Below are positions 1,444 through 58,798 of a DNA stretch of 64,000 bases, one piece after another. The translations under genes and the position numbers were made by a program. The stretch lies in IMG/VR virus record IMGVR_UViG_3300018876_000008, positions 64,001 through 128,000 of that record. One strand, written 5' to 3'. Within the stretch, counting starts at the first letter, position 1. Every line of letters starts with the position of its first letter. Origin of the DNA: a virus. Below the pieces are notes generated by a model. It saw only the letters and a list, made by a program, of their open reading frames with translations. It was not told where the DNA came from and made no database searches.

Positions 1444-2216
1444 GATTAAATACAGACTGGATTTTACAAGAACCTATAGATTTAGAACACAAACAATATG
1501 TTCTATTAGACTACATGGCCAAAGTCAATGAAGACTTTGATAACTTCGTATTATACCCATCTTTTCAAGAACTAGCACTACATTTAGCGAGTATAGGTTC
1601 TTTAAAAGAGAGAGGACAGTACCTTATTTTAAATAGAGAACCTGAAGATATTGACGATGAAATATTATTAAGTGATTTAAACTATAAAAAGTTAATTAGT
1701 ACTAAAGAAAATATTGATGAAATATTCAAAATAGTCGAATACTCAAAAGATAAATTAACCGATTTATTTCTTATTGGTAAGTCTATTTATTCTTTAATTT
1801 ATGATGCTACATTGGTGAGTGTTGTTTTTAATGGGGATAAAATAAAAACTGAAAAACCAGGTAGAGGTTTCATTTACTTCAATTACAAAGGTAAAGGTTA
1901 TATTTACCAATACTTTATTAGGTTATTATCAGATAAATCAGGAGAAAACAAATGTGATATAAGTAAAATATATGAAGGAGATATTATAGGTGAAAATTTA
2001 GAAGATGTTATATCATTAATAAAACAAAATCACCAATTAAAAGATGGTCCTAGATATCAACCACATGAAAAAATAGATAAAAGACTACCAATATTTAGAG
2101 TTAAATTTGAACAAGAATATGATTTAGAAGGTGGTTTACTTGCGATTATAAAAAGAAAGGTAATGAATTATATTTTTCAGACAATAAAAATTCAAGAACT
2201 AAAAAATGACGACTAA
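1440..2216 (+). CDS. Hypothetical protein
   Basis: ATG at 1440 overlaps upstream stop (ATGA coupling). Confidence 0.7.
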   Translation: MRLNTDWILQEPIDLEHKQYVLLDYMAKVNEDFDNFVLYPSFQELALHLASIGSLKERGQYLILNREPEDIDDEILLSDLNYKKLISTKENIDEIFKIVEYSKDKLTDLFLIGKSIYSLIYDATLVSVVFNGDKIKTEKPGRGFIYFNYKGKGYIYQYFIRLLSDKSGENKCDISKIYEGDIIGENLEDVISLIKQNHQLKDGPRYQPHEKIDKRLPIFRVKFEQEYDLEGGLLAIIKRKVMNYIFQTIKIQELKNDD

Positions 2217-2619
2217 AATTAAAAAACCTGACCATATAGTTTGGGATGAAGAAAATCAAAAATATCATGCGAATATTTTACCTTATGGTAGTAGTGTTTC
2301 TGCACCTGTTATTAAGATAGAAGATATATCTTCATATAAACAAAGAAATGTTCAAAAAATACAAACTAAATTCAATAAGAAATATCAAGAGTTAGTTGAT
2401 GAATATAATAATTTAGTTGATGAAGTTAAGTTAAACCAAATAGTGTATGAATCTGATTTCTCATTTGAGCCTGTGATAGGTAATACTTATCATTTATACT
2501 ATAGAGAAAATGGAAAATATTTTTTATCTTTAATTGAACCTGAAATGTGGAATCAAGAATATGTTTTAAGTGTAGAATTAAATTCTGAACATAAATGGGT
2601 TTTAATTAAAGAGGTATAA
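2206..2619 (+). CDS. DUF2452-like protein
   Basis: LPYGSSVSAP.I and FSFEPVIGNTYHLY motifs. Confidence 0.6.
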   Translation: MTTKIKKPDHIVWDEENQKYHANILPYGSSVSAPVIKIEDISSYKQRNVQKIQTKFNKKYQELVDEYNNLVDEVKLNQIVYESDFSFEPVIGNTYHLYYRENGKYFLSLIEPEMWNQEYVLSVELNSEHKWVLIKEV

Positions 2620-5628: not shown

Positions 5629-7880
5629 AAAAATTAATTAAAGAATCGGGACTAAGGAATATGAAGGCGTTAGCCGACAGATATAAAAAGGCTAAAATTT
5701 ATTTCCACCAAGATTTAGACGGTGTTACAACTGCCTTAGCTATGAAAAATTATTTAGAAGATAACGGAATTAAAGTTGTTGATTCTGAGATAATACAGTA
5801 TGGTGATAAAGAGTTCACTGTTAAAAAACAAGACGCTCAAGGAGATACTATGCCGGTTTTAGTTGACTTCGCCCACGGTAAACCAATGTTTGTTGTCCAC
5901 ACGGACCACCATGATAGTCAAACAGGTGTTGAAGATGAGACTTCAACTTCTTTCAGGTCATCAAGGTCTAATGTTGAAACCTTATCGCAGATAATGTCTC
6001 CAAAAGATATTTTTACTTCTGATGATATAAGGTTAATATCTACAGTTGATTCTGCAGATTTTGCGAAGTACGGATTAAAACCTAAAGATATTATGAATTT
6101 TGTTTTTAAACTTCAAAAAGACGAATCATTACAAAAAAATAAAACAGCTTTAGGATTGGCGACTAACAAATTAATGTTAGCCTATAAGAATAAACCTGGA
6201 TTTATGGAGGAATTAGTTATGACTTCTAACCCATCGTTGTTAAATATATTTCAAAATATTAATAGAATCGCGGCGGAGAGAGGATATGCCCTTCCTGATG
6301 AAATGGATTTAAATCAAAAAGATTACATTCAAAAACAAAAAGAAAGTGAAAAAGTATATGTGGACGATAATATTATAGTTCAATATGGTGGAGGTTCAAT
6401 GTTTAAACCAGGTTCTTATGATAGATACACACCATTTGAAAATAACCCTGACGCTGATTTCTTAGTTATTGCTTGGCCTATGGGATTAGTACAAGCATCT
6501 TGTAACCCATTTAAAAAAGAAAGAGAACTAAAAGGTGTTAATTTAGGTGAGATTGCTCAAGAAGTGTTAAGTAAATGGGAGAGTCAATTAAAGGATAAAA
6601 TAATTCCATTATCTACAATAAAGTGGATATCTGAAGGTAACAAACAATTTGGTGATGAATCAGTTGGTTTTACAAATGCAGATTTAGAAGCATTTTATGG
6701 TGATAAAGTACGTTCTATTGATGGTGGTGATGAATATATGGAAAAGTTAAAAGACATCATGGATACACCTTCAACTCAATTAACGGAAGACCAGTGGGCA
6801 ATATTAGACAAATTAGGTGTACCTGCGTGGGAAATGATTCAAGCAAACTCAGGAGGACATAAATGTATTACTAATATATCGGCACTTAATTATTTCGGTA
6901 GAGGTAAGAGAAAACCTGAAGGTAAATATAAATACAATAAAGATAAAGGTGACTCACCTTATGTTAAGTTTACTAAAATGATTCAAAATGAATTTGTTAG
7001 AAAACTTAAAGAAAAGATTAATGAATCTAAAAATTTAAATGAATCGGTTTTAAATGAAGCAATAGGTTTTATATTTCCAATTGGTAATGAAGAATTCAAT
7101 GTTGGTTATGATTCCTCAGGATTAGGTAGAGGTAAGAAAAAAGTATTAGATAAAGACGAGGCGATTCATAATAGTGATTATGGGGCAGGTGACGCTAAAC
7201 ATCAACACAGAGGAGGACATTTAGGAATTGATATATTTGCACCTAAGGGTACTCCAATTATTTCAGCTACGGATGGAGAAGTGATTAAAGTTAGAAGAAA
7301 AGATAGAACTACTGGTGGTAAGACAGTTAGTGTATTATTAAATGGTATAGTTTATTATTATGCACACTTAGACCAAGTATCTGATAATATAAGTAAAGGT
7401 GACGATATTAAAAAAGGCACATTCATAGGTACAGTTGGTGATACAGGAAACGCTAAAGGAACCCATCCACACTTACACTTTTCGATGTATGAGAAAAGAG
7501 GTGGGTATAAAAGAGGAACTATTGACCCATGGCCATTTTTAAAAGATAGTCTTGATGGGGGAGATTTAATTGTTATTGAACCAGGACAAGTTGTTGATAA
7601 AGTTGAGGGAAAAATTGCACGTGAAGATTTAAGTATTACGGATATTGTTAACAACGGTGATAACTCTGAATTAATATCAATGGGTTCACAAGGTAAAGGA
7701 GTTGAAGAAATCCAAACAATTTTAGATAAAGAAGGTTACGATTTAGGGGATGCTGGGATTGATGGAATCTATGGTCCTTATACAATGAGAGCGGTTAAGA
7801 AGTTCCAAAAAGATAATGGTTTAAATTTGATTGACGGAATTGTTGGTATTGAAACGTCAACAGAATTCAAGAAACACTAA
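5625..7880 (+). CDS. Fusion: DHH-like phosphoesterase + M23 peptidase + peptidoglycan-binding domain
   Basis: YFHQDLDG/VDFAHG/TDHH/GGH; HLGIDIFA, YYAHL, HPHLHF; DGIYGPYT..AVKKFQ..NGL..DGIVG. Confidence 0.8.
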   Translation: MKKLIKESGLRNMKALADRYKKAKIYFHQDLDGVTTALAMKNYLEDNGIKVVDSEIIQYGDKEFTVKKQDAQGDTMPVLVDFAHGKPMFVVHTDHHDSQTGVEDETSTSFRSSRSNVETLSQIMSPKDIFTSDDIRLISTVDSADFAKYGLKPKDIMNFVFKLQKDESLQKNKTALGLATNKLMLAYKNKPGFMEELVMTSNPSLLNIFQNINRIAAERGYALPDEMDLNQKDYIQKQKESEKVYVDDNIIVQYGGGSMFKPGSYDRYTPFENNPDADFLVIAWPMGLVQASCNPFKKERELKGVNLGEIAQEVLSKWESQLKDKIIPLSTIKWISEGNKQFGDESVGFTNADLEAFYGDKVRSIDGGDEYMEKLKDIMDTPSTQLTEDQWAILDKLGVPAWEMIQANSGGHKCITNISALNYFGRGKRKPEGKYKYNKDKGDSPYVKFTKMIQNEFVRKLKEKINESKNLNESVLNEAIGFIFPIGNEEFNVGYDSSGLGRGKKKVLDKDEAIHNSDYGAGDAKHQHRGGHLGIDIFAPKGTPIISATDGEVIKVRRKDRTTGGKTVSVLLNGIVYYYAHLDQVSDNISKGDDIKKGTFIGTVGDTGNAKGTHPHLHFSMYEKRGGYKRGTIDPWPFLKDSLDGGDLIVIEPGQVVDKVEGKIAREDLSITDIVNNGDNSELISMGSQGKGVEEIQTILDKEGYDLGDAGIDGIYGPYTMRAVKKFQKDNGLNLIDGIVGIETSTEFKKH

Positions 7881-7886
7881 ATTATA

Positions 7887-8243
7887 TTAAATCAAAGAAA
7901 AGGAGACATTGTCTCCTTTTTTTATGCCGTGATTTTTACAGTATCTACCTTCAACTTCTAAAACTGTATTACCAAAACCTTGATATGACTCACAATTTTT
8001 ATTATCATTACACGGTTGACAGTTGGAATGGATTTCAGTTATTTCTGTTCCGTTAATAAAAATGATATCTAATGGTATTATACAGTTATACATCCAAAAA
8101 CTTTGTTCAGTGGTGTTTGGCATAAAAAATAACATACCATCAAAAGATTCGTCAAACTTTTTACCCATCATTCCTTTAGAAATGGAATCTGGAGTGGCAG
8201 AAACTTTGACTTTTAAAATATTATCATTTATTATTACTTTCAT
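7887..8243 (-). CDS. DUF192 family protein
   Basis: KGMM...GMLF...SFWM.NC.IPLDIIFI...VLEV; start reassigned to ATG 8243. Confidence 0.8.
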   Translation of the reverse strand: MKVIINDNILKVKVSATPDSISKGMMGKKFDESFDGMLFFMPNTTEQSFWMYNCIIPLDIIFINGTEITEIHSNCQPCNDNKNCESYQGFGNTVLEVEGRYCKNHGIKKGDNVSFSLI

Positions 8244-8271
8244 ACTAATAAATATACAATAAAAAGAATAT

Positions 8272-8679
8272 ATGAAAAAATACGCAGGTATAATTGTAAG
8301 GTGTAACAATAAGGTTCTACTTTGCAAAAGAAATTCGGACACGACATTACCAGGGTTTTGGTCATGTCCTGCAGGAAGTGTAGAAGATGATGAGCCAGTT
8401 AAAGACGCGGCCATTAGAGAATTTATTGAAGAGACTGATTTACCTGTCATGGGTGATATAGATTTTGCTGCAGTCATAAAACGATATAATAGAGATGGTA
8501 CAAAGGTTAAAGGTATGTTATATACCTATCTTATGGATGTTGAAGAAGAAATGTTTCCGGATTTAGAGAACGCTCACGATGGTGATGAGCATACAGAGTG
8601 TGGTTATTTTGGTAAAGATGAACTACCTGAACCAATGACCAAACAATTTAATAAACTTATAAATATAATTTTAAAATGA
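8272..8679 (+). CDS. NUDIX hydrolase
   Basis: Nudix box GSVEDDEPVKDAAIREFIEETDL. Confidence 0.9.
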   Translation: MKKYAGIIVRCNNKVLLCKRNSDTTLPGFWSCPAGSVEDDEPVKDAAIREFIEETDLPVMGDIDFAAVIKRYNRDGTKVKGMLYTYLMDVEEEMFPDLENAHDGDEHTECGYFGKDELPEPMTKQFNKLINIILK

Positions 8680-8885
8680 ACGAACAATTATTTAACATGT
8701 TGATGAAATCTGCTGAGGCAGATAGAGCAAAGGCTTTATTATCTTTAGAATTACTTGGTAATAAAGCAGTGGGGATTGGAGACCATTCAACAGAAGACTT
8801 CTACAAAAATGCTGAAGAAGCACTTACTACTTTAGTGGATGCAGATGATAGAATCGCAGCATTAACTAAGTATTTTAATAAGTAA
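8676..8885 (+). CDS. Hypothetical protein
   Basis: Translationally coupled ORF. Confidence 0.65.
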   Translation: MNEQLFNMLMKSAEADRAKALLSLELLGNKAVGIGDHSTEDFYKNAEEALTTLVDADDRIAALTKYFNK

Positions 8886-9013
8886 ATTCAAAAAAATTGG
8901 TCAAAGAGCTTGTCTGAGAGTAATTTTTTTGTATCTTTGTATAACTTTTAAAGAAAACGGGCATATTTATATTTTACCCTACTGATTATTTCAGAAATTT
9001 TTTTTAAAAAGTA

Positions 9014-9045
9014 TTTGACAGATTGAAAATTTTGTTGTAAGTTTG
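9014..9045 (+). promoter_or_regulatory. Bacteroidota-type housekeeping promoter for large ncRNA
   Basis: TTTG (9014-9017), 20 nt spacer, TAAGTTTG (9038-9045). Confidence 0.75.
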
Positions 9046-9049
9046 TCAA

Positions 9050-9915
9050 ACAAATCAGTAAGAGTACTGAAGACGTTCTTTGAAAATATTAATAAGTGTC
9101 TAATTTGACCATCACAGTTTGTGAAAGAAATACAAAAAGATTAACCCCTTTTTTCTACAACGGTTAAAATAAGACATTTGACGGCGGTTTAGCGTCGTTA
9201 GATAACCCCAGTAATGGGACTAAAGGGATTGAAACGGGAATAGTACACCGTGAATGTCCGCAGTCGTGAGGCTGACAACTAAACAAAGTGGCTACAATCA
9301 AGACCCTAAGGGCAACTGCTAAAGGGACGAGATTACTCTGAATCCGTGGAATATCAGAGTTGAGATAGTGATATCAATAGGAAAAGCTACAGGTGACGGT
9401 TCGACACATCCTGTCAGATGTTGTAGGGCTGGGTACCAGTACGAAGGGATTCCGAGACGATAAGTTAACGTATTCCTGAAGTACCGTAAGTTGACAGACT
9501 TACAGAGAGGTGTGAAGCATTTTGTTTCCAAAAGAAACGAACCTTCTCCCGAAGCACATCTTTCATTATCCCACAGTTGCTATACTAACTAACAATTAGA
9601 AAGCAAAAGTTCTTCGGGCGTTGACAACGAAAGGTGTCTAACACTTCGAGTCATAGACTAACGAAGTCATTGGTAAGACCGCAAGTCTTCTGATGTCGAT
9701 TACCAAATACCTGGTGGGACGGCCATCCCTTCGTAAACTCGCAAGGTTTAACAGAGTAAAGTAGTAGTTGAGTAGTTGTTAACGAGAAGAGTGGTTCACT
9801 CAAATAACCGACACTGACTTGATACTCTCGGCAACGATAGTGGATAAGTGAGCAACCGACATAGGGTAATCTCACTAAAGACAGGTCACATAAACGTGTA
9901 ATCTCAGCGTTCTAT
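9050..9915 (+). ncRNA. Large structured ncRNA, GOLLD/ROOL-like candidate (~860 nt)
   Basis: No credible ORF, GC-enriched, many GNRA/UUCG-capped hairpins, flanked by promoter and terminator. Confidence 0.75.
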
Positions 9916-9935
9916 ACTTTATATATATCTTCCTT

Positions 9936-9969
9936 AACCTCAGTTCTAACCAACTGAGGTTTTTTTTTA
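9936..9969 (+). terminator. Intrinsic terminator
   Basis: aacctcagtt-ctaacc-aactgaggtt followed by T run. Confidence 0.85.
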
Positions 9970-10029
9970 CCTAATAATTTGTGAGTTAGAATAATATTCC
10001 TTATATTTGTAATACTAAAAAAAAATATT

Positions 10030-39991: not shown

Positions 39992-41071
39992 ATGAAACAG
40001 ATTAAACTTGTCAATGTATTAAAAGAATCGGTACAAGAAATGTACTCACAAGACAAAACATCATCGGGTGTGGGAGAACTTGTATTTGACAAAATTTGGT
40101 ACTCACAACAATATGGTAACTCGGTATACTTTTCAAATTTTGATAAATCCTTAGGTTCAGTTGCTAACAGTAGTAAATTAAAGTTAACTGATAAAAAAAC
40201 GGGTGAGGAATACATTTTTGATTCCGAAGATTTAAGAAGCACTAGAAACGGTAAAACATTATACATTCCTATGGGAGAGATTAAACAACTCTACCCAAGA
40301 TTACTTTCAGATTTATTAGATAAAGAACATAAAAATAAAAATGAAAACTTAAGTGTTAATACACTAAAAACAAAAGCCTCAGGAATACCTCAACTTATAT
40401 TAGATATTTTAAAAGAAGTGTACCCAAATAATTGGGGTAAGATTGACGAACCTGGATGTGAAACATTAGAAGGGGTCATCGATATCTTTCCCGCGATGGA
40501 AGGGGAAAGATGGTCTATACTAAATTTCTTCGATACTAATCCAGGTGTAATCAGATTATTATTAGAAAAATATCAGGACGAAAACGAGGATACTACATTA
40601 GAAGGATTCAAAGATTACCTAAGAGATAATAAGGATGAATTGTTCAGAGCTGACAGTCCATTCTTACAAACATTAGTAAAGAGAAACTTACAATCATTCG
40701 AAAGAGGGTGGAAGACCGAAGCAGAGGTCATAGACATCGTTAAAAGAGAGAATCCCGAACTAACTGATGAAGACTTTGTACAATACTGTTTAGGTTCAAT
40801 ACAAGACCGTGTAAGTGGTGTAGACTTTAAAGTTAAAGGAAAGGGTTACCAAACAAAACCAGCGTCTAAAATGGAAAGATTAAGAAACGGTGGTATAAGA
40901 GTACAAACTTATGGTATGAGAGATTGGTACAAAAGAAAACCTGAGATAGATTACATACTATATTCTAACGGTAAAAACATAGCCGTATTCCCTAACAGTA
41001 ACTATACAGTTTCGAAAGATGGTAAAACAGTAACACATTTCGGACCCATAGTTAAAGATTCATTTGTATAA
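39992..41071 (+). CDS. Hypothetical protein, possible C-terminal PD-(D/E)xK nuclease-like domain
   Basis: G..TE...QD...GVDF....YQTK; VLKES leader. Confidence 0.45.
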   Translation: MKQIKLVNVLKESVQEMYSQDKTSSGVGELVFDKIWYSQQYGNSVYFSNFDKSLGSVANSSKLKLTDKKTGEEYIFDSEDLRSTRNGKTLYIPMGEIKQLYPRLLSDLLDKEHKNKNENLSVNTLKTKASGIPQLILDILKEVYPNNWGKIDEPGCETLEGVIDIFPAMEGERWSILNFFDTNPGVIRLLLEKYQDENEDTTLEGFKDYLRDNKDELFRADSPFLQTLVKRNLQSFERGWKTEAEVIDIVKRENPELTDEDFVQYCLGSIQDRVSGVDFKVKGKGYQTKPASKMERLRNGGIRVQTYGMRDWYKRKPEIDYILYSNGKNIAVFPNSNYTVSKDGKTVTHFGPIVKDSFV

Positions 41072-41113
41072 ATAAAATTATTATTCTATATTTGTCCTAT
41101 AACAAAGACAGAT

Positions 41114-41404
41114 ATGAGTAAATACCGAGTAGTTCGAGAAGATTATTATAATGAACGGGGTATCTCTTTTGATACATGTTTCTTTATTCAAAAACAAAAA
41201 TCATTTCTATTTTTTAAAAGATGGGTATATATCACACATAAGGATGTGGGAATTAAAACTCTAAATAAAGTACCTCTACATTTTAAAGGTGGACTACTCG
41301 AAGCTGAAGATTTTATTAAAGATGTTCTCAGTAAAGATATTATGATTAATGGTCATCATCTTTCTGTCCTAAAAGAGTATGACTCTAAGGGTGTCAGTAT
41401 ATAA
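41114..41404 (+). CDS. Hypothetical protein
   Basis: KYRVV...FIQKQKSFLFF..W; TATATTTG promoter. Confidence 0.55.
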   Translation: MSKYRVVREDYYNERGISFDTCFFIQKQKSFLFFKRWVYITHKDVGIKTLNKVPLHFKGGLLEAEDFIKDVLSKDIMINGHHLSVLKEYDSKGVSI

Positions 41405-42200
41405 ATTTCTAAATTTTTTTGTGTCTACATTTCTCAGGCGGGGGGTCTTTAAAAAACTTTCTATTGTAAACCTCAAGGTTATAACTCCAAAGTTTCTTCA
41501 ATATATTATATAAGAGATTCATTTATATAGAGTCCATAAGATAATACCCACTCTTTACATATACACAGTAAAAGAAAGGGGTATTGTATGGATATACATA
41601 TAAAGGTTAAGAAAAGGGGGTATCTATATGAGTAAACATATAATCCCTAATAAAAGGGTGTGGAGTATAGTCTATTATATAATACACTACCTATAATTCT
41701 CCGTAAGGAGAAGAAAACCAAAGTGTAGTGTGAGTATAGACTCATATAAGAACACCCTCTTAATAGAAAATCACCCAAAATCACGGTTTCATCTACGAAA
41801 CACTCTACAAAACACCACTTAGAACACCATTAACCGATATATAGGGATGGTGCCCACTAGTATTTCTAAATAGGGGATTCCGACAGTAAGGGAGGGGGTT
41901 ATGACCATTAGTGAACATAATCACCTAAAAGTATAACTAAATGGGGATTTCACCGATGAAAACAAAGATTTTTTAGGTATCTGTCGGAATAAACTCTTTG
42001 GAAATATTATTAAATGGTGTAAAACTAATGATTTAATATACTTAATTAATCATTCATATGCCGGAATCGGTTCCTTCGGACCTCTTTCTCGACCTTCGGT
42101 CGGTCTTTTTTCTTCTAAAAAATTTTTTTTTAACGGGTCCTTCGTCCCGTATTATTTACACCTTTTTAAGAAAGTCTTTAAACATAAAGGGGTCACATAT
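41405..42200. other. ORF-free control region with palindromes and GAA-loop hairpins
   Basis: Shares an 18 bp palindrome with 26393; three C-GAA-G hairpins on minus strand at 42069-42150. Confidence 0.55.
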
Positions 42201-57535: not shown

Positions 57536-57582
57536 AATTTCTAATTTTTAATTTAAATTTTATGTCAAAGAACTCACCTCGT

Positions 57583-58443: not shown

Positions 58444-58549
58444 ATGTGGTACTAATTTATAATTTCAAATAACGTTTTTGTCTTTCAACAATGTAAATGT
58501 ACGATACAAAAGATTAAGTAACAACTATTTTTTTAAAATAATTTAATTG

Positions 58550-58786: not shown

Positions 58787-58798
58787 ATGTCAAAGAAC
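58787..58798 (-). promoter_or_regulatory. boxA-like antitermination site GTTCTTTGACAT
   Basis: Identical 12-mer at 57562-57573; related GTTCTTTGAAAA at 9075. Confidence 0.55.

Follow-up and report, generated by a model that had tools for sequence, protein, structure and literature searches.

A complete gene for a GOLLD RNA with a lineage-specific 5' domain and a boxA-like leader in a large marine phage, most likely with a Bacteroidota host

What is made from a stretch of about 860 nucleotides (nt) in a viral genome that holds no long open reading frame (ORF) and is richer in G+C than its surroundings? The stretch in question lies at 9050-9915 of the window, i.e. the 64,000 nt at positions 64,001 to 128,000 of IMG/VR virus record IMGVR_UViG_3300018876_000008, and the window is in turn a part of a 169,337-bp record estimated to be ~56% complete. 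In an earlier note made from the letters of the window, the stretch was taken for an ornate non-coding RNA gene of a Bacteroidota phage, either a GOLLD-like member or a new class. GOLLD RNAs are among the largest non-coding RNAs of bacteria and phages and build RNA-only cages; the class is said to go back to Weinberg et al. in 2009. The answer reached here is that 9050-9969 (+) is a complete GOLLD RNA gene with a promoter and a terminator at its borders, which is a new copy of a known class. The explanation as a whole, a stand-alone GOLLD gene in a large marine phage with most likely a Bacteroidota host and with an RNA that would form cages, is put forward with high confidence.

For the class assignment, the whole window was scanned against all 4227 Rfam families, and the scan was repeated on the whole record. 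RF02032 (GOLLD) matched along its entire length (model positions 1-416 of 416) at 9505-9910 (+), with 301.6 bits (E 2.4e-85) as compared with a gathering score of 150 bits. As the 3' half spans the whole of RF02032 and scores twice what is required, the RNA belongs to the known class: the GOLLD-like member of the earlier note was borne out, and its new class is excluded by the full-length match. Nothing was found that speaks against GOLLD identity. The all-Rfam scan of the window listed only GOLLD and transfer RNAs (tRNAs), with no match for OLE, HEARO, RNase P, transfer-messenger RNA (tmRNA), group I/II introns or ROOL. In the earlier note, too, a strong Rfam match was to make this a known class. 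ROOL (RF03087) resembles the RNA as a large ornate phage-linked RNA that forms RNA-only cages, but differs in that it has no sequence or structure match to the region in the scan of all families; ROOL was likewise not found in the whole record by a search whose control also gave no signal. No match was obtained when the region was compared with 50,697 phage records by blastn, a search which is too insensitive because it also missed megaphages carrying a GOLLD of 275-287 bits.

The non-coding status and the strand were examined next to the composition. The G+C content is 43-45% across 9050-9915 as against a window mean of ~31%. The longest ORFs within 9050-9915 (70-74 amino acids (aa), minus strand) were rejected as coding, stops and frameshifts breaking them in relatives. 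The stretch had been called the longest ORF-free, GC-enriched one of the window; it is indeed free of ORFs and rich in G+C, but it ranks second both in G+C and in length without an ORF of at least 80 aa, behind a tRNA array at 57.5-59.0 kb. Folding was compared with that of shuffled sequences and gave z = -3.79 for the plus strand versus z = -0.28 for its reverse complement, and several invariant G-U pairs in the covariation alignment are compatible with the plus strand alone, in agreement with the earlier view that G-U pairs favour this strand.

For the determination of covariation, an alignment of 17 close relatives (A1) and a wider one (A2) were used, and pairs were counted on 28 non-redundant members (<97% identical). 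RNAalifold on the 17 relatives predicted 207 pairs, 68 of them with compensatory changes. Among the 28 members, 97.8% of the cells pair, compared with 88.6% in shuffles and 35-42% with slid partners. The collection of homologues and the search for covariation, both proposed in the earlier note, gave 91 pairs changed on both sides, a number that was reached by none of 500 shuffles (slid controls, 11-24). Such changes occur at one or more pairs in 14 of the 17 helices of the 5' core (helices 3-19; exceptions 3, 4 and 13), with 84-100% of the cells pairing, and in 14 helices of the 3' domain (helices 20-38; exceptions 22, 25, 32 and 34 and the doubtful helix 23), with 93-100% of the cells pairing except in the 2-pair helix 38 (87.5%). 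The hairpins CCCA-GTAA-TGGG (9207-9218), CAGTC-GTGA-GGCTG (9261-9274), GTAAGTT-GACA-GACTTAC (9486-9503), AAGAC-CGCAA-GTCTT (9675-9689) and TAAACT-CGCA-AGGTTTA (9734-9750) were all found where the earlier note had placed them, and these five stem-loops sit in helices that covary in the relatives. The CTTCGG motif of a further hairpin is present too, but at 9612-9617, a few bases off the 9609 given for it.

A long-range pairing between GAGATTA (9329-9335) and either of two TAATCTC copies (9867-9873 and 9899-9905) had also been suggested. The motifs are indeed complementary, but a pairing between them is not supported, since GAGATTA pairs and covaries locally while neither TAATCTC copy follows it. 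GAGATTA takes part in the local helix 9296-9307/9323-9334, in which a compensatory change is seen; in relatives it is replaced by GAGACCA, GAGGTTA and other forms with the local partner changing to match, the AATC...GATT of the window becoming GGTC...GACC or GGCC...GGTT (columns 286-289 with 321-324). The first TAATCTC belongs to the local 3'-domain helix 9848-9852/9871-9875 and is identical in the 17 relatives of A1, save one base in two of them, and nearly invariant in A2. The second is invariant in A1 and also occurs as TAGTCTC in A2, a change unrelated to those of GAGATTA; it is part of the terminal loop, for which the cryo-electron microscopy (cryo-EM) structure shows partners inside the 3' domain, namely P23 and J24/26 (PMC12286853).

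Three other distant pairings were returned by RNAalifold. The one between an A-run at 9133-9137 and the T-run of the terminator was treated as spurious. For 9075-9077/9906-9908 the columns barely vary, so that covariation gives no verdict. CCC at 9145-9147, in the variable 5' part, was paired with GGG at 9616-9618 just past the linker; its third pair (C-G in 19 sequences, U-G in 5, U-A in 3) probably goes back to only one or two events, and the pairing could be a tertiary or inter-subunit contact, or chance.

The gene carries its own transcription signals. A promoter of Bacteroidota sigma-A type was located at 9014-9045 (+), with -33 TTTG (9014-9017), a 20-nt spacer and the -7 box TAAGTTTG (9038-9045), from which transcription is predicted to start at about 9050; in Bacteroidota the -7 box is TAnnTTTG at -12 to -5 (PMC9723704). 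The earlier note had described a consensus promoter at these positions. The motif is real, but its type is that of Bacteroidota (TTTG-N20-TAAGTTTG), and it was not listed by a sigma-70 scan because the second hexamer, TAAGTT, fits TATAAT at 3/6 positions. The window holds 8 copies of TTTG-N19-21-TAnnTTTG where 2.1 would be expected, TAnnTTTG stands upstream of the RNA in 39/39 distinct relatives, and the full motif is found in at least 27/39 (chance ~0.1%). At the other end, the strong terminator proposed at 9936-9969 (+) was confirmed by a terminator scan as an intrinsic one with a 10-bp stem, a 6-nt loop (hairpin 9936-9961) and a T-run; its stem is kept by compensatory changes in relatives (columns 994/1007, AU:13 GC:4; columns 997/1004, UG:9 GC:5). 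Right past this terminator, a second Bacteroidota-type promoter (TTTG-N20-TATATTTG) was noticed at 9978-10009 (+), 20 nt before an ATG at 10030, so that the small membrane-like protein encoded downstream has a start signal to itself.

The presence of the RNA in nature was examined in public sequencing runs. The stretch is present in 20 runs from 13 studies (marine, seawater, sponge and salt marsh), of which six runs from five studies are metatranscriptomes. Four metatranscriptome runs, one per study, were compared with window 7000-12000 by using contigs of at least 99% identity. The contigs of these RNA libraries cover 9065-9888, 9172-9906, 9183-9906 and 9149-9907, respectively. In three studies the 3' ends thus fall within one base of each other (9906, 9906 and 9907), where the folded RNA ends, ~30 nt short of the terminator stem. 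The segment between the folded RNA and the terminator, at 9911-9935 (+), was defined as a 3' trailer from these contig ends, which are a weak hint that it is probably trimmed off. Sampled words of 9050-9969 are present at 97% in DNA runs and at 73-86% in RNA runs. The flanks (7000-9000 and 10006-12000) have no contig cover in the four RNA libraries save 8633-8783 in one run, an absence which does not show that the flanks are silent. In run X18, a salt-marsh metatranscriptome, several short contigs 90-95% identical to the 5' domain (9182-9440) were observed beside near-identical ones, and related GOLLD variants of the lineage therefore co-occur in that sample.

These data bear on whether an independent RNA exists at all. 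The stretch might instead be a structured, riboswitch-like leader (5' untranslated region) of the genes from 10030 onwards or the 3' untranslated region of the gene upstream, as both flanking genes are on the same strand and their synteny is conserved across the lineage. Such a reading is very improbable in view of the conserved promoter of the RNA itself, the strong conserved terminator that precedes the next gene, the separate promoter at 9978-10009 that serves this gene, and the contigs, none of which bridges from the RNA into a flank and three of which end at 9906-9907.

The Rfam GOLLD model spans only the conserved 3' domain, and in the published description of GOLLD a universally conserved 3' region, in which a disordered linker follows the first stem, is joined to a 5' region of lesser conservation (PMC12286853). 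The 5' domain of the window (9050-9504, 455 nt; ~420 nt in env-38, PMC12286853) was therefore compared among loci. For this, IMG/VR was scanned for exact patterns of two conserved 3'-domain motifs, which gave 116 loci. Among the 103 sequences with enough upstream DNA (102 loci and the window), 75 share one 5' type (the major type), 18 cluster with the window and a few others form small groups; motifs specific to the cluster of the window occur in 0/96 other GOLLD loci. By a second IMG/VR scan with one subtype motif, 57 members were added to reach 77 loci in all. The GOLLD 3' domain stands within 1-5 nt of the subtype 5' domain in 73/77 of them, and the remaining 4 are cut by the end of the locus. 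The 5'-domain profile aligns with the major type collinearly over positions 2-304 of 424 (E 1e-8 to 1e-3), and the domain is therefore a diverged GOLLD subtype, not a foreign element; in sampled loci the distance from boxA to a 3'-domain landmark is ~85 nt longer in the major type than in the subtype. The subtype motifs were not found in the supplements of PMC12286853, of which the part available is uninformative on this point, as its named alignment rows are 3'-domain stretches of ~410-490 nt.

The 5' domain also provides what can be said for a new class of large ornate RNA with no kinship to GOLLD: 9050-9504 by itself gave nothing relevant against Rfam at E up to 1 and thus matches no family, and its signature motifs are absent from the 96 other loci. 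This possibility is considered close to nil, given that the 3' half matches the GOLLD model in full with twice the required score, that a GOLLD 3' domain always goes with the subtype, that the profile of the subtype is still collinear with the major 5' type, and that a variable 5' region belongs to the very definition of GOLLD (PMC12286853).

Within the 5' domain, a variable part at 9086-9181 (+), with a conserved AACCCCUUU patch at 9143-9151, was delimited on alignments A1 and A2, and no consistent consensus helices were found in it in either. It is followed at 9182-9503 (+) by the core of the lineage-specific subtype, for which RNAalifold and the pair counts give ~17 helices. Among its elements are a multi-stem junction, with 9288-9293/9385-9390 as the closing helix, and hairpins at 9392-9437 (17 bp) and 9486-9503.

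The only 5' element common to the subtype and other GOLLD types is GTTCTTTGAAA, a boxA-like element at 9075-9085 (+), ~25 nt past the predicted start, of which the window holds no other exact copy. It fits GYTCTTTAANA, a gammaproteobacterial consensus, at 10/11 positions (PMC5725501). The motif (with up to one mismatch) was found in 10/11 distinct subtype regions and in 56/68 distinct other GOLLD regions, always at the 5' end of the RNA, compared with 2/11 and 0/68, respectively, for the reversed control. The motif stands 116 nt upstream of 16S, on the same strand, in one Bacteroidia genome that has this gene assembled, and the leader of the ribosomal RNA (rRNA) operon (rrn) there, ACGTTCTTTGAAAATATT, is identical over 18 nt to window 9072-9089. 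The motif was also found 95-125 nt before the conserved 16S 5' end in 68/401 sampled Bacteroidia genomes (reversed control, 0), which is probably a lower bound because many of them are metagenome-assembled genomes, perhaps without assembled rRNA operons; a 16S gene was assembled in 1/4 Bacteroidia genomes tested.

In rRNA operons, boxA RNA binds NusB/NusE and nucleates a complex by which Rho-dependent termination is prevented (PMC4807359, PMC5725501). The motif and its place suggest that GOLLD is made with the antitermination machinery of host rRNA, which would fit an 860-nt untranslated transcript needing precise folding. The likeness to an rrn leader consists of a hairpin and, behind it, GTTCTTTGAAAATATT, no more than ~40 nt from the predicted start, with an identical rrn sequence in Bacteroidia; the difference is that here the leader precedes a phage non-coding RNA instead of rRNA, and that a one-mismatch variant precedes the phage tRNA array. 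The hairpin is the optional CAGUA-AGAG-UACUG at 9056-9069 (+) in the minimum free energy fold, just before boxA and placed like the rrn boxB hairpin. The distances from the promoter to the core fall into two discrete classes, 24-37 nt (the window included) and 5-7 nt, the former with correspondingly more 5' sequence that members of the latter do not have. A2 relatives of the 24-37 nt class mostly have the hairpin, with differing stem sequences, and those of the L021 group do not have it. No paper linking GOLLD with boxA was found in the open literature.

Seven one-mismatch variants of the element occur in the window, 3 of them on the coding strand of the tRNA array. The latter (GTTCTTTGACA and GTTATTTGAAA) are at 58788-58798 (-), 58463-58473 (-) and 57563-57573 (-), and the one at 58788-58798 lies in the leader of the array, downstream of a Bacteroidota-type promoter at 59035-59005. 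Four of the eight boxA hits in the window (exact and one-mismatch) fall within ~2.5% of the searched sequence. With boxA-type motifs in the GOLLD leader and in the tRNA array, both stable-RNA units of the phage therefore seem to carry the signal.

The host of this large marine phage is most likely a member of Bacteroidota, as was proposed in the earlier note; the promoter type, the start regions without Shine-Dalgarno motifs and with A peaks, and the boxA of Bacteroidia rrn type all point this way, and the genes on both sides are those of a phage. For the start regions, the 20 nt upstream of 77 ATG-initiated ORFs of at least 100 aa in the window were used. Shine-Dalgarno motifs were present at 7.8% of the starts versus 6.6% of random positions and are thus not enriched, and A peaks at -13 (0.70), -12, -11, -6 and -3. 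A at these positions promotes initiation in Flavobacterium johnsoniae (PMC6847099).

Several searches for the host or for relatives gave negative results. The 16-mer CGGCGGTTTAGCGTCG was found at 120 loci in genome contigs, none with the 5' domain; these are chance hits in GC-rich genomes, and they provided no prophage host. A 606-aa neighbour protein had no match in phages by tblastn. GOLLD was not found in two Bacteroidota genomes and 151 sampled Bacteroidia by a weak search in which 8 candidates per genome were scored. Among the listed rows of the published GOLLD alignment, as far as it was available, there is no name of a Bacteroidota phage, which is no evidence of absence, and no relevant paper on GOLLD in Bacteroidetes was found in the literature. 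Full GOLLDs are present in megaphage records of 634-642 kb, LR745206.1 (L329, 420875-421280; 287 bits) and LR756502.1 (L330, 434685-435091; 275 bits), with another 5' type and with tRNA genes directly beside them. Kinship with these megaphages was rejected as host evidence, as only one protein is partly shared and their paper names no host.

The genes around the RNA encode a glycosyltransferase, a DNA methyltransferase, an endolysin, a peptidase, a NUDIX hydrolase, a nucleotidyltransferase and ThyA. The order peptidase, NUDIX, small protein, GOLLD, several small ORFs, nucleotidyltransferase and ThyA is syntenic across the 77 loci, and the 5' subtype therefore marks one phage lineage. Elsewhere in the window, another gene-free stretch of ~650 nt was observed at 41405-42057 (+); it is preceded by a Bacteroidota-type promoter motif (41063-41094) and a 96-aa ORF (41114-41404), it is closed by terminator-like hairpins at 42069-42103, and no Rfam family matched it at E up to 0.1.

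The phage encodes 8 tRNAs, the nearest of which is 47 kb off the GOLLD gene on the opposite strand. Within the fetched locus, tRNAs were found near GOLLD in 0/30 subtype loci as compared with 17/30 major-type loci; since the subtype marks one phage lineage, its tRNA absence counts as a single evolutionary observation. The distance does not exclude membership in GOLLD, because the literature places GOLLD "often" near tRNAs (PMC5737381). In one viral locus (L041), a tmRNA with a tag peptide was predicted by ARAGORN at 2090-2486 (+), together with a major-type GOLLD and a 12-gene tRNA array.

A function with tRNAs, in which the cage stores or protects phage tRNAs or delays their maturation, has to be weighed here. 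Storage has been proposed in the literature (PMC12990946), such roles being suggested for GOLLDs within tRNA arrays or with a tRNA inside the linker, and the idea draws on the tRNAs in 17/30 major-type loci, the tRNA-flanked GOLLDs of both megaphages and the 8 tRNAs of this phage. For the RNA of the window it is nevertheless unlikely: no locus of this lineage (0/30) has a tRNA near GOLLD, the array here has a separate promoter and lies on the other strand at a distance of 47 kb, and by ARAGORN there is no tRNA in the ~48-nt linker (9565-9612).

The 3' domain resembles published GOLLDs in detail. It opens with the first stem of the Rfam model (model positions 1-61), a branched hairpin at 9505-9564 (+) comprising helices 20-22, which may be equated with P14. 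An A/U-rich variable linker follows at 9565-9612 (+) (the J13/15 region), which in the Rfam alignment ends in the conserved AAAGCAAAAGU (9601-9611) and which varies in length and sequence in A2; the equivalent linker in env-38 is disordered and faces the interior of the cage (PMC12286853). The conserved domain proper, 9613-9910 (+) with helices 24-38 and within the RF02032 match, probably corresponds to P15-P27, and its terminal loop GUAAUCUCA (9898-9906) to L27. The 3'-terminal loop reads GUGUAAUCUCAG at 9896-9907 (consensus GUGUAaUCUCAg); it is invariant in A1 and also occurs as GUGUAGUCUCAG in A2. Two adjacent hairpins, at 9716-9729 (loop CGGCCA, its central GC invariant in A2) and 9734-9750 (loop CGCA; CGCAAG invariant), are putatively P21a and P21b, judging by position and loop sequence alone. 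In env-38 the half-shells are joined by self-complementary kissing loops, L21a (central GC or CG) and L21b (PMC12286853, PMC12990946).

The RNA is thus alike to GOLLD (RF02032) in the first stem, an A/U-rich linker that has AAAGCAAAAGU at its end, the putative P21a/P21b and the terminal loop GUAAUCUCA, as well as in the two-domain layout of ~860 nt with a variable 5' domain of ~450 nt, in its location in a phage and in a marine origin like that of env-38. It is unlike the other copies in that its 5' domain is a distinct subtype restricted to one phage lineage, with motifs absent from the 96 other sampled loci, that its gene is not beside tRNAs, and that its host is probably a member of Bacteroidota.

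GOLLD RNA is reported to rise in phage lysis. The following course is proposed for the gene described here. Host RNA polymerase would initiate at about 9050, and the boxA RNA would recruit NusB/NusE and other Nus factors, by which the long untranslated transcript would escape Rho termination. The RNA would fold co-transcriptionally, as rRNA does, and the trailer and the terminator would be trimmed to leave the folded core, ending at ~9907-9910. The cores may then self-assemble into a closed RNA-only cage of 10-14 copies with dihedral symmetry, like the two GOLLDs seen by cryo-EM. Such a cage would have two rings made of the 3' domains, which would join the half-shells by way of kissing loops L21a/L21b; its caps would consist of the 5' domains, and the A/U-rich linker would be turned towards the inside. 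As a best guess, the cage may enclose or scaffold a macromolecule of the host or the phage in infection, and its role in this lineage would be independent of neighbouring tRNA genes. The published cages are a 14-mer for env-38 (Kretsch et al. 2025, PMC12286853) and a 12-mer for S. agalactiae (PMC12990946), the 3' domain alone gives mostly a 10-mer, and the copy number per cage depends on the 5' domain (PMC12286853, PMC12990946). As the 5' domain sets the copy number in the published structures, this subtype may therefore give a different cage size.

The boxA could have a further role in the cage itself. If it were present on every subunit, the cage might bind NusB/S10 or ribosomes multivalently and so interfere with or redirect host rRNA transcription or ribosome biogenesis. 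Most of the GOLLD loci examined carry the motif at the 5' end, and here it lies inside the RNA-library contig that starts at 9065; GOLLD is reported to pull down ribosomes (cited in PMC12286853), and S10 (NusE) is both a ribosomal protein and a boxA partner (PMC4807359). This is pure inference, and retention of the first 40 nt by the mature RNA is assumed in it; antitermination of the RNA's own synthesis fully explains a boxA in the leader, and 12/68 other-type loci have no motif even at one mismatch, so that little chance is given to the idea. The more specific version, in which a boxA kept on the mature RNA provides 10-14 NusB/S10 sites per cage for capturing or redirecting factors of host rRNA transcription or ribosome assembly, and in which the distinct 5' cap gives a size unlike the 12- and 14-mers, is also regarded as doubtful, with only a small chance of being right. 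The stand-alone, cage-forming GOLLD described above is preferred.

Several points weigh against this preferred explanation. The evidence for the RNA consists of assembled contigs, which cannot give strand, level, timing or exact ends, and RNA libraries may contain DNA. The host assignment comes from sequence signals alone and has no support from a match to a spacer of clustered regularly interspaced short palindromic repeats (CRISPR) or to a prophage. Cage assembly is carried over from two other GOLLDs whose 5' domains differ. The function of boxA is deduced from sequence identity and position, not from Nus-factor binding. Finally, the usual link between GOLLD and tRNAs is missing (47 kb, other strand; 0/30 subtype loci).

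What this locus adds to GOLLD is no new class, but a lineage-specific 5' domain, a boxA leader, a setting independent of tRNA genes and contig cover in RNA libraries from the environment. The presence of the RNA in marine and salt-marsh RNA libraries means that its expression can be studied in nature. The ~77 natural sequences of a distinct subtype of the 5' cap domain, with strong covariation, are material on how the 5' domain sets the size of the cage, and the lack of a tie to tRNA genes in this lineage speaks against models in which GOLLD functions with tRNAs only. The locus also gives independent support for the view that phage GOLLDs begin with the boxA of the host rRNA operon, by which their synthesis, and possibly their role, would be tied to Nus antitermination.

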